Shown here: piece after piece, positions 44,494-56,928 of the stretch | Position numbering within the stretch: position 1 is the first letter of the stretch | How the letters are laid out: every line of letters begins with the position of its first letter | Origin: Zootoca vivipara | Taxonomy: Eukaryota | Direction: 5' to 3' | NCBI RefSeq assembly: GCF_963506605.1 | Contig: NC_083290.1 | Coordinates: 26,040,001-26,104,000 of the forward strand | DNA: 64,000 nucleotides | Notes under the pieces: generated by a model | Told to the model about the DNA's origin: nothing | The model's database searches: none | The model's input: only the letters and a program-made list of their open reading frames with translations | Translations under genes and position numbers: made by a program

Positions 44494-44528
44494 ATGGGCA
44501 ACCAGTGCTGCTGCTGCGGAGGCGCCTG
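44494..44528 (+). CDS. C11orf52: C11orf52 homolog coding exon 1 (MGNQCCCCGGA-W)
   Basis: GAAATGG; resembles human MGNRVCCGGSW; donor TG|gtgagt; weak CpG island. Confidence 0.85.
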
Positions 44529-46394
44529 GTGAGTTAGCTGGGGCTGGCTTGCTGCTTGGGAGCTGGGCAAAGAGGGAGGCGGGAGCGCTTCTTGGGGCAG
44601 CCCAGGGCTACGAAGAAGACCAGCTTTGCCAGCTGTGTCGTGTTAAAGAGAGGGAGAGGCGGTGTTTCGCTGCCGGGTCTGGAGAGCTTAGCTGGTGCCA
44701 CCACCATCCTCCTCAGCCCCGTGGCTGGGAGCAGAGCCACCCGGGGTATCGATAGGGGAAGGATGGAAGCGTTCCAGGTTTCACATCCATAGGCGGAGCC
44801 TGCCCACCTCCTGATCTGCCTGAAATGTTTTTGCAGGCGAGATACAGAGAGATCCTCCTGGAGTGGCGTCCGCTTCTCCAAAGGAGGCAGAGCTTAACTG
44901 GAGACAGGTGTCAATGGGGCTCCAGCCCTACGCAGAAGCTCATTCATTGTCAAAACCCGGACACTTATTTGCTGAACACATACAGGGTGTGCTGCCTGTA
45001 CCAATGAGAGCTGCCACCACTAGCCCATACATACCAGGTTGGCTGGGGGGTGGGTGGGCACCTGCGGTTTTCCAGATGTTGGTGGACTACAACTCCCATC
45101 ATCCCCAGCCATTGGCCGTGCTAGCTGATGCGGCTGATGGACGGCTGCAGGTTCCCCATCCCTGTACTAGATAATAGGAGGTGGTCAATGTGTATAAGTT
45201 TGATGGGCAGGCTGGAGTGCTAGCACCGCCCCTTTTAGAAATTAACCACTCAGAGGAGGGCTAGCAGGCTGCCAAACTTTTCCCACCTGTTGCCGCTCCT
45301 GTGCCCTTAGCAGCAGTTTTGTCTGTCCTTTAATGGCAGTTGTGTTTTATTATCTCCATGCTGGGGGAAAACTTTACTCTCTAGTTTCTATATACAGCAT
45401 CAGGCAACAGTTAAAATCATAAGAGCTGACCGGGGTGGGGGTCAGTTGGCACTCCTTGTTGGAATGACGGCCACTTGAGAACCCAGTGCATTAATCTGCA
45501 CTGGGGGCTCCTTGGAGAAAGTATGGAACAACAACCAGAAAACCCCCAAAAGTTTAATTATTGAAAAGAAATCCATCCTTTTCCTTATGTTGCAGGCTAG
45601 GAAAGAGTGCTGTGCCAATGCCACTGACTTTGGGCGACTTTCGAACTAGGAACTTCCCGGTTGTCACTCAGCCCATTCTCTTTCAGGGGGTTCCAACCAC
45701 TATTTGGACATGTGAGAACCTCAGGGTGCCAAAAATTCCTTCAGCCTACATTTGGAGTCCCAAATGGGAGTAGATTGGGGTGATCTAGGGAAATATGAAG
45801 TTGCCTTTTGGTCCAATCTAATTCAGTATTGTCTACACTGACTGGCAGCAGCTCTCCAGGGCTTCAAGCAGGGGGTCTCTCCCAGCTCTACCCGGACATG
45901 CCACTGGGGATTGAAACTAGGACCTTTGACATACAAAGCAGATGCTGTTCTACTGAGCTATAGTCCTTCCATTCTGGGGAGGAATCTCCCTAGGATTCCC
46001 CATTTATTTTGCCTCCTATATGCCGTATTTACTTGAGTCTAATGCGCCATTGAATCTAATGCACACCTCAATTTTCAGAACCTTGAAACCAAAAAAAGTA
46101 TTTGCTGGCAAATGTAAATGTGCCATTGAATCTAATGTGCACCTCAATTTTCGCAACGTAATTTGGGCAAAAAAAGGTGAGCATTTGATACGAGTAAAAT
46201 AGAAGCAGCACCAGAAAGAAGCAGGTTCCCTTTATGGCAGGTGGAAGGCTCTCCTTCTCCTACATTGGGAGTGCCAGTTGGGAGAGCCCAGCTTTGAACA
46301 AGAGGAGAGGCTCACTGTGAAACAGAAGTCCTGATTTTCGGTTTTGCTGTCAGGCTAATGGTTTGTGGCCGAACAGAGAAATAGCATCATCTAG

Positions 46395-46396
<2 letters not shown>

Positions 46397-46447
<51 letters not shown>
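46397..46447. repeat. (GA)n microsatellite
   Basis: Visible. Confidence 0.95.
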
Positions 46448-46448
<1 letters not shown>

Positions 46449-46451
<3 letters not shown>

Positions 46452-46933
46452 GAGACATCACCTTGCTGACAAAGGTCCGTATAGTTAAAGCTATGGTTTT
46501 CCCAGTAGTGATGTATGGAAGTGAGAGTTGGACCATAAAGAAGGCTGATCACTGAAGGATTGGTGCTTTTGAACTATGGTGCTGGAGCAGACTCTTGAGA
46601 GTCCCATGGACTGCAAGAAGATCAGACCTATCCATTCTGAAGGAAATCAGCCCTGAGTGCTCACTGGAAGGACAGATCCTGAAGCTGAGGGTCCAATACT
46701 TTGGCCACATCATGAGAAGAGAAGACTCCCTGGAAAAGACCCTGATATTGGGAAAGATTGAGGGCACAAGGAGAAGGGGACGACAGAGGACGAGATGGTT
46801 GGACAGTGTTCTCTAAGCTACGAACATGAGTTTGACCAAACTGCGGGAGGCAGTGGAAGGCAGGAGTGCCTGGCATGCTCTGGTTCAGGGGGTCATGAAG
46901 AGTCGGACACGACTAAACGACTAAACAACAATA
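46449..46933 (+). mobile_element. RTE-BovB LINE 3' fragment with stops
   Basis: Homologous to 3869-4350; (CAA) tail; TSD AGTGGAGAGAGA. Confidence 0.92.
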
Positions 46934-54780: not shown

Positions 54781-55011
54781 GGGACCCAGGTGGCGCTGTG
54801 GGTTAAACCACAGAGCCTAGGGCTTGCTGATCAGAAGGTCGGCGGTTCGAATCCCTGCAACGGGGTGAGCTCCCGTTGCTCGGTCCCAGCTCCTGCCCAC
54901 ATAGCAGTTCGAAAGCACATCAAAGTGCAAGTAGATAAATAGGGACCGCTCCGGCGGGAAGGTAAACGGCATTTCCGTGCGCTGCTCTGGTTCGCCAGAA
55001 GCAGCTGTGTC
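54781..55011 (+). mobile_element. Sauria/Squam1-type SINE, 3'-truncated, TSD ATCATTGTTTAATA
   Basis: Head with GGTTCGAATCC; TSD at 54766-54779 and 55012-55025. Confidence 0.85.
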
Positions 55012-55068
55012 ATCATTGTTTAATACCAGCTATGTTGCTTCTCTAAATATCAGCTGTTTCTTCCGCAG

Positions 55069-55118
55069 GTACAAGAACCATTAAGTCAAGCACCCAGCAG
55101 CACCCAGAGAGCAAGAAG
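55069..55118 (+). CDS. C11orf52: C11orf52 coding exon 3 (GTRTIKSSTQQHPESKK)
   Basis: ccgcag|GT ACA...AAG|gtaaaa; phase 1/0 joins exons 2 and 4 in frame. Confidence 0.78.
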
Positions 55119-56146
55119 GTAAAACTGCCTCTGAAAAGATTTTGCTACCAATTTCAAAAGCTCCTAAAGTATGTTGTTGATTCAGTGCCATGTTACTTGG
55201 AGTTGATTGAAGTAGTAGTGCCTTTTGGATCAGCCTTATAACTCCGTTCTTGGCCCTAATTCATACACACAAGAGGCCACACAGGCGTATGAGTTGCAGT
55301 GCTGTGAGCGCAGCTTCATTAGCCCAGTCAATTTGTGAGTGTGCTCAATTCAGACCATTTTAACCATACCAACCCAATGCATCTCCTTTTGTGCAATCAT
55401 CCTTCCTTGGAGGTTTTTACGCAGAGGGCGGATGGCCATCTCTCATGGATGCTTTAGCTGAGATTCCTGCATTGCAGGGGTTTGGACAAAAAGACCCTTG
55501 GGGTCCCTTCCAACTTCCAACTTCTATGATCTTGATGTATGTTTAACTGCAATTCTGAAGTCATCAATAATTGTGAATGCTTAGCCCTGGGTTGATGTAT
55601 ATTCTGGAGTAATTAATCTGGAATAATGAAAGTGTTATAATCTGGTGTTAGTAAGACTCTGCCTGGTGCTACCAGTAGTAAGACAGACTTTTCTGATCAA
55701 TGGAGCACAAGCAGCTCTCTTCTAGCCCAGTCACAGAACACTTGCTTTCCATGCAGAAGGTTACAGGTTTGATCCCCAGTGTCTCTAAGGAAAGCTGAGA
55801 ATATCCCTGTCTGACATCCAGGGAAGCTACTGTCAGTCAGTGTTGACTGTACTGAGCTAGATGGACCAATGGACTCAGTATAAGGCAGCCCCCTATGTTC
55901 AGTGGGGCTTGAGCAGAAGAATTTGCCAGTGGATTGTGCCCCATGTAATTATTTATTATTTTATATATTGTTTAAAGCCCAAAACGGTTTCTGAGCTGTT
56001 CTCTCTTGTATAAAAGCCCATTGCGCATAACATTACAATATGAGCACGCATAATTAAACTACACAATAAAACCCCTTTAAAACATTAAAATAGGAATAGG
56101 AAGCTACAATAAACTGAGTTAGGCCATTGGTCTGCCTAGCCCAGTA

Positions 56147-56387
56147 CAGTCGTACCTTGGATCTCAAATGCCTTGGCTCCCAAACAAATCGGCTCCTGAA
56201 CGATCGAAACCCGGAAGTGAGTGTTCTGGTTTCCAAACTATTTTTGGAAGCCGAACGTCCAACAGGGCTTCCGACTGGCTGCAGGAGCTTCCTGCAGCCA
56301 ATCAGAAGCCGCGCTTTGGTTTCTGAATCTTTTGCAAGTCAAACGGACTTCTGGAACGGATTTCGTTCAACTTCCAAGGTATGACTG
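56147..56387. mobile_element. Tc1/mariner-type MITE
   Basis: TA|CAGTCGTACCTTGGA...TCCAAGGTATGACTG|TA. Confidence 0.85.
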
Positions 56388-56676
56388 TATTGCATTTACT
56401 GACTGGGAGTGTCTCTCTAGGATTCTAGACTGTGAGCCTCTTCTAGTCCTACCTGTAGATGCTGTGGATTGACCCTAAGACCTTCTGATGTAAAGCAGGT
56501 GCCACATCACTGACCTGTGGTCCTTCCCTTATAAACTAACATTAAAAATATGGAGTGAATATAATGCAACAGGGGTGCAATACGAGTTTTCCACCTGATG
56601 CACCAACATTGATTGGGCTGAGCTTGCTTCAGAGAGATTTGCCTTCCTCAATCTCTTCCTCTTTCTCTCTCTGAAG

Positions 56677-56928
56677 GGAATGGATGTTGGGCCCGTTTAT
56701 GACGATGTGTCTGAGTTCCCAGTCTATGCCACCGTGAGCAAGCCGAAGAGCATGAAGCGCGACGACAGCAGCGTGCATTACGCAGACATCCAGGTCTTCA
56801 GCAAAATACGGGAGCGCTCAGCTGAAGAGGTGAAGACCTTCCAGTCCCAGAACACTACAGAATATGCCACCCTCAACTTCCCCCGGGCTACACTGAAGTA
56901 TGACAGTAAGAATGGCACTCTGGTGTAA
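56677..56928 (+). CDS. C11orf52: C11orf52 coding exon 4 (last)
   Basis: Long pyrimidine tract then ctgaag|GGA; VHYADIQV...TEYATLNFPRATLKYDSKNGTLV matches the C11orf52 C-terminus; total 125 aa. Confidence 0.92.
   Translation, partial: GMDVGPVYDDVSEFPVYATVSKPKSMKRDDSSVHYADIQVFSKIRERSAEEVKTFQSQNTTEYATLNFPRATLKYDSKNGTLV

Follow-up and report, generated by a model that had tools for sequence, protein, structure and literature searches.

The window analysed in this study is the whole 64,000-nt stretch of contig NC_083290.1 of Zootoca vivipara, in whose numbering all positions are given. On its forward strand lies C11orf52, a known, barely studied gene for which no function was found in the literature searched. 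Four coding exons bounded by GT donors and AG acceptors were located at 44494..44528, 52320..52360, 55069..55118 and 56677..56928, which join to 378 nt and encode 125 amino acids followed by a stop codon. P0001, the database entry for the C11orf52 homolog of Zootoca vivipara, agrees with the joined product at 124/125 residues. An earlier note had read the gene as a four-exon C11orf52 with a series of short motifs, and the exons and all quoted motifs are in place. Exon 1 encodes Met1, Gly2 (44497-44499, a predicted myristoylation site) and Cys5-Cys8 (44506-44517, predicted palmitoylation sites). Exon 2 contributes Cys14 and the basic patch KRKKDK (52339-52356), exon 3 a linker without conservation, and exon 4 all five tyrosines together with the stop codon. 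Exon 4 matches Pfam PF15147 (DUF4578) with 91.2 bits (cut-off 27; E 1.1e-25).

The runs X1 and X2 were taken as RNA runs, in which joints with GT..AG ends show splicing. The joints between exons 2 and 3 and between exons 3 and 4 are present in contigs of both runs; the joint between exons 1 and 2 is not among the listed contig joints of X1 and X2. One X1 contig spans 44208-44529, where it ends, another begins at 44500, and a spliced contig has 116 letters ahead of position 56673, which equals 30 + 37 + 49. Since the contig ends and this arithmetic agree to the base, we infer that the first joint is as in the gene model. Of each of the raw-read runs X20-X22, about 6% was covered; depth over exon 4 was low, no joints emerged, and the tables were dominated by repeats. 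The 5′ untranslated region covers at least 44208..44493 of the forward strand and contains four upstream ATGs as well as an in-frame stop codon that precedes the start codon, ends at 44358 and lies inside transcribed sequence. One upstream ATG, at 44423, is out of frame and opens a reading frame overlapping the start codon, which could dampen translation. The long 3′ untranslated region covers at least 56929..60000, as contigs and stranded reads reach position 60000, and the first AATAAA downstream of the coding region is found at 60750.

Based on the Pfam match, the near identity to P0001, the genes upstream and the single match in the genome, the lizard gene is the orthologue of C11orf52 (DUF4578; mouse 2310030G06Rik, fish zgc:193711). 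A match to HSPB2 lies upstream at 34077-37097 (+) and alpha-crystallin-like exons, likely CRYAB, at 19856-20649 (−); the position downstream of both is the expected neighbourhood of a DUF4578 gene. DIXDC1 is absent from the 64-kb window. A search of the lizard's own genome for paralogues found none.

Homologues of C11orf52 reach skate, sawfish, bichir, gar, teleosts, coelacanth, lungfish, amphibians and every amniote group. The counts given below refer to 158 of the 213 collected proteins, which were labelled by clade from their source names, while 55 unnamed, fused or truncated proteins were set aside. This set includes isoforms of single genes, and the human protein is not part of it. Six longer matches turned out to be fusions with HSPB2 or DIXDC1 or to carry an N-terminal extension, and none of them is receptor-like. 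The rodent entries P0122, P0123 and P0125 are HSPB2 fused to C11orf52, with Gly2 at the start replaced, reflecting either read-through or an annotation merge.

The tyrosines of the lizard protein are located at residues 50, 59, 77, 105 and 117. Y50 is part of the motif YDDV (56698..56709) with an acidic residue at +1, a putative Nck-type ligand; the pattern is found in 135/158 labelled homologues, including 18/28 mammals. Y59 lies in PVYATVSK (56719..56742), a Csk-type motif by its likeness to the EPIYA-A site of Helicobacter pylori CagA. [quoted passage not shown] They correspond to human pY78 and pY103, respectively. The 28 residues between them, as counted in the earlier note, were confirmed in the joined protein. 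The tail YDSKNGTLV (56899..56925) forms a class I PDZ end and is predicted to fold into a short hairpin.

Conservation across vertebrates, on which the proposal in the earlier note hinged, was borne out for the two main tyrosine motifs. The Y77 and Y105 motifs are each kept in 157/158 homologues, and both tyrosines are invariant across an alignment of 30 diverse vertebrate sequences. Identity to the lizard protein in this alignment is 0.60–0.82 in the motif blocks compared to 0.16–0.20 in the spacers, indicating short linear motifs in a disordered chain. The distance between the two tyrosines is 28 in 133/156 measurable sequences and 25–31 in 154/156. The numbering Y78/Y103 in two published studies gives a human spacing of 25 (PMC2777383, PMC4102909). 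Two AlphaFold runs on P0001 yielded no fold (pTM, the predicted template modelling score, of 0.17 and 0.22), with one short helix at residues 91–100 and a small C-terminal hairpin. One search for solved structures gave 0 matches and another three, at E 0.5–1.6 only. PTB or PH domains were not found, as exon 4 matches DUF4578 only and exons 1–3 amount to 42 residues. The absence of a transmembrane segment holds as well: the highest 19-residue hydropathy is 0.31 in the lizard protein, and no value above 1.6 was obtained across the 158 homologues.

The pair of motifs had been called PD-1-like, which applies to the ITSM and not to the ITIM. Y105 shares 7/9 residues (−2 to +6) with the ITSM of PD-1. 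It also agrees at −1, +1, +3 and +5 with the consensus of the C-terminal SH2 domain (C-SH2) of SHP2, which consists of an acidic residue at −1, hydrophobic residues at +1 and +3 and an aromatic one at +5 (PMC12878756). The Phe at +5 is present in 148/158 homologues. Y77 is followed by Ala at +1 in 150/158 and by Gly in 0. In PD-1, Gly at this position of the ITIM keeps SHP1 off, whereas Ala, the residue commonly present in BTLA, SIRP-alpha and Siglecs, permits SHP1 to bind (PMC8631942). The Y77 motif, judged by its residues, is therefore better called BTLA/SIRP-alpha-like rather than PD-1-like, and binding of SHP1 is also predicted. The forward spacing from ITIM to ITSM is 18–35 in most listed receptors and 25 in PD-1 and BTLA (PMC8631942, supplement 4), and the lizard spacing falls inside this range. 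For patterns picked post hoc, an ITIM followed by an ITSM 18–35 residues on was observed in 56/200,000 shuffles of the protein; the pair, Gly2 and a class I PDZ terminus came together in 0/200,000.

The Y59 motif was found in 126/130 non-mammalian and 0/28 mammalian sequences, and the lizard therefore shows the ancestral state. The additional tyrosine motif that the earlier note had seen in the lizard relative to human is an old site that mammals have lost; the idea that the lizard had newly acquired tyrosines was rejected. Y59 may also resemble the Csk site of PAG1. In the comparison with the Csk-recruiting adaptors PAG1 and Pragmin, the likeness observed for Y59 is to EPIYA-A only, and Y59 is absent in mammals. 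In CagA, EPIYA-A is the Csk site and EPIYA-D the SHP2 site (PMC2768901). By motif likeness, Y59 resembles the former and Y105 the latter, so that the EPIYA region has the same order of a Csk-type followed by an SHP2-type site. Both CagA cores, PxYA[KQ]VNK and YATIDF, are carried exactly by 12/213 homologues, of which the named ones are all from ray-finned fish. CagA is an unrelated, large bacterial effector, to which the C11orf52 family gave a profile match of E 1.6 only. Only short motifs are alike, and the most plausible account is convergence towards shared SH2 domains rather than homology.

At the N-terminus, the combination of a Met-Gly start, a cysteine cluster and a basic patch described in the earlier note is present in the lizard; Gly2 and the basic run are widespread, whereas the cysteine cluster is mainly an amniote feature. 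Met1, Gly2 and one Cys are invariant in 39 selected amniote sequences. Among the 87 sequences starting with Met-Gly, 81 have at least five Lys/Arg in residues 11–35. A Cys within positions 3–10 of these sequences occurs in 56/58 amniotes, 3/11 amphibians and 0/15 ray-finned fish, and Ser/Thr/Cys at position 6, read by the N-myristoylation rule, in 14/15 ray-finned fish and 9/11 amphibians. From this distribution, the ancestral anchor may have consisted of myristate and the basic patch, with palmitate added later.

The C-terminal GTLV is present in 145/158 homologues, but in only 4/17 ray-finned fish sequences. A longer pattern, Y[DN]xxxGTLV, is kept in 138/158 and is stricter than a PDZ end requires. 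Its hairpin, which resembles a chignolin-type turn, appears in both AlphaFold models. Pattern and hairpin may hint at one particular partner or at a switch involving Y117. In carp-family and other teleost copies (P0156, P0184, P0190 and relatives), the GTLV tail is replaced by another extension with a conserved proline-rich block. The assignment of the C-terminal TLV as a class I PDZ ligand agrees with weak binding of the human tail peptide to Scribble PDZ3 in vitro (Kd, the dissociation constant, of 26.5 µM), with no binding to PDZ1 and PDZ2 (PMC3189207).

Phosphorylation of the two main tyrosines, presumed in the earlier note, has been reported for human Y78 and Y103 (PMC2777383, PMC4102909), and the phosphopeptides concerned carry the ITIM-like and ITSM-like motifs (PMC4102909). 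Both sites are among the 20 most changed between normal lung and tumour, with ratios of 0.09 and 0.13, which corresponds to an approximately 8- to 11-fold higher phosphorylation in normal lung (PMC2777383). In AGS gastric cells with wild-type H. pylori, the phosphopeptides changed by log2 −1.0 and −1.1, a roughly twofold drop. No such drop was observed with the cagA deletion strain (−0.3 and 0.0) or the pathogenicity island deletion strain (−0.2 and −0.06; PMC4102909, columns assigned from the head row of the supplement). Losses of phosphate of this kind were ascribed to inhibition of a kinase (Src) or activation of SHP2 (PMC4102909). Expression of C11orf52 tracks an epithelial signature (co-expression r 0.768; PMC4062414). 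A review of database partners suggests that it could be an adapter, lists HRAS among the partners and mentions its presence in urinary exosomes (PMC10298883); the latter two points fit a membrane location.

Taken together, we consider it probable, with clear room for doubt, that C11orf52 is a lipid-tethered, receptor-less docking adaptor of epithelia for SHP2 or SHP1. The predicted N-terminal myristate, together with the basic patch and, in amniotes, palmitate, would hold the protein on the cytoplasmic side of the plasma membrane in epithelia, and a PDZ scaffold may position it at junctions via the tail. Src-family kinases would probably phosphorylate Y77 and Y105. The doubly phosphorylated protein would then engage SHP2 (or SHP1) through both of the phosphatase's SH2 domains, with Y77 occupying N-SH2 and Y105 C-SH2 by analogy with PD-1 and BTLA, and the phosphatase would be opened and switched on. 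In non-mammals, Y59 would add recruitment of Csk, for which we propose a local brake on Src-family signalling. Mammals have lost Y59, so that recruitment of Csk would fall away in the human protein; as to the net effect in mammals, we merely lean towards local damping. Lipid anchor, kinase, two-point binding of SHP2/SHP1, PDZ placement at junctions and the Y59-dependent recruitment of Csk are each inferred.

Several points weigh against this adaptor. The conservation of the motifs is partly built in, since homologues, those of fish included, were found by profiles that weigh the Y77 and Y105 motifs. The GTLV end is missing in 13/17 ray-finned fish sequences, so the tail is dispensable in many fish, and 71/158 database predictions lack a Met-Gly start, being fragments or having other first exons. 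Scribble PDZ3 bound 38/56 peptides tested, and the C11orf52 tail is a weak ligand (PMC3189207). The sole dedicated interaction study is cited, second-hand, as linking the protein to desmoglein 1 and Wnt signalling (PMC10298883). Neither an SH2 partner nor lipidation of C11orf52 was found in the literature searched. The name is also absent from the supplements of an SHP2 proximity-labelling study (12/23 files covered), a study of PTPRK in epithelial cells (8 files) and two myristoylome studies (6 and 2 files); these absences are weak because expression in the cells used was unchecked.

The cited link to desmoglein 1 and Wnt is the starting point for a different reading, which appears unlikely to us. 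According to it, C11orf52 would be a scaffold of junctions or desmosomes, kept in place by its PDZ tail and by partners such as desmoglein 1, and its tyrosines would be substrate sites of kinases and phosphatases that switch its own binding instead of docking SHP2. Conservation of the tail beyond the PDZ minimum and its modelled hairpin are consistent with such a role, and the drop in phosphorylation that depended on CagA would likewise suit a substrate of SHP2. However, the ray-finned fish sequences that lost the tail keep both tyrosine motifs, and tandem SH2 binding demands just such a fixed spacing and a Phe at +5.

A similarly low probability is given to an activating membrane docking adaptor in the manner of GAB1 or FRS2, which would bind SHP2 and thereby drive Ras-ERK signalling, most of all in mammals. 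It is established that ERK is promoted by SHP2 docked on growth-factor adaptors, and the motif evidence is the same as for the docking adaptor favoured above. The absence of the Csk-type site in all mammals examined and the listing of HRAS as a partner would suit an activator. On the other hand, the sites are less phosphorylated in lung tumours than in normal lung, and the ancestral protein couples the docking site with a Csk-type motif.

YDDV, YATV, YADI and YATL all match YxxPhi, the sorting-signal motif. They could thus be read as clathrin-adaptor sorting signals of a lipid-anchored trafficking factor, with which the occurrence in exosomes would agree. This is quite improbable, as the conserved Thr at −2, Glu at −1, Phe at +5 and fixed spacing are not needed for sorting and the sites are phosphorylated in human. 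Least probable, and largely refuted, is that C11orf52 is the cytoplasmic tail of a longer receptor with missed upstream exons: an ITIM-ITSM pair is typical of receptor tails and many predictions have other N-termini, but an ectodomain was rejected by the in-frame stop upstream of the start codon, the lack of a hydrophobic segment in any homologue and the nature of the six longer matches.

Other elements of the window lie outside C11orf52. A young long terminal repeat (LTR) retroelement of Ty3/gypsy type was identified at 27065-32028, between the crystallin gene and HSPB2. Its exact 379-bp direct repeats (27065-27443 and 31650-32028) flank an open frame of 1388 codons with domains of reverse transcriptase, RNase H and integrase. 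In Zootoca vivipara, a distance of about 13 kb separates the crystallin gene from HSPB2, while in mammals CRYAB and HSPB2 lie near each other, head to head. A long exon at 6389-7636 (−) encodes a ferredoxin-fold anticodon-binding domain and presumably belongs to FDXACB1. Reverse-transcriptase fragments, likely remnants of long interspersed nuclear elements, are located at 3451-4344 and 41847-43001 (+).

Among known systems, the ITIM/ITSM receptors PD-1, BTLA, SIRP-alpha, Siglecs, PECAM1 and G6b-B share with C11orf52 the order of ITIM and ITSM at the usual distance; its ITSM is near that of PD-1, and the Ala after its ITIM tyrosine is as in BTLA and SIRP-alpha. In contrast to these receptors, it has neither an ectodomain nor a membrane segment, is co-expressed with epithelial genes and has an added PDZ tail. 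It is therefore not an ITIM receptor and has no ligand. FRS2, which is lipid-anchored, and the transmembrane proteins PAG1/Cbp and LIME1 have an acylated N-terminus, a disordered tail and several phosphotyrosine docking sites, with SHP2 or Csk as effectors. C11orf52 resembles them in its predicted acylated N-terminus, where Gly2 is accompanied by Cys and a basic second signal as in acylated docking adaptors, in its disordered tail and docking sites, and in SHP2/Csk as likely effectors. Unlike FRS2, it lacks a PTB or PH domain through which a receptor could be reached, which places it outside the FRS2/DOK/GAB group, and unlike PAG1/Cbp and LIME1 it lacks a membrane helix. Homologue searches found no sequence homology to FRS2, PAG1/Cbp or LIME1. 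By analogy, the protein likely works like the tails of ITIM receptors or of FRS2, DOK and GAB. Calcimembrin/C16orf74 is likewise small and disordered and uses short motifs to bring a phosphatase to membranes, but it recruits the Ser/Thr phosphatase calcineurin and not an SH2 phosphatase. Compared to mammalian C11orf52, the lizard protein retains the Y59 motif, and its spacing is longer than the human one. No ITIM/ITSM or SHP2 reading of C11orf52 and no myristoylated ITIM adaptor without an ectodomain were found in the literature searched, bioRxiv included; this literature was represented mostly by titles and beginnings of abstracts, with subscription journals outside its range.

A broader reading is put forward only tentatively. 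C11orf52 may be a free-standing checkpoint-receptor tail, a ligand-independent, lipid-anchored scaffold for Csk and SHP2 that, from the earliest jawed vertebrates on, has set the Src-family/SHP2 tone at the junctions of epithelia. It would be the host counterpart of the Csk-then-SHP2 array of CagA, and its Csk arm would have been dropped in mammals. SHP2, a phosphatase at the centre of signalling, is also a target for drugs, and the proteins that activate it by two-point binding are for the most part large adaptors or the tails of receptors. If the docking role is true, a receptor-less epithelial activator of 125 residues would be a new minimal form of the two-point SHP2 device. It would also give a direct function to a human gene with two phosphotyrosines among the 20 most changed sites between normal lung and lung tumours.

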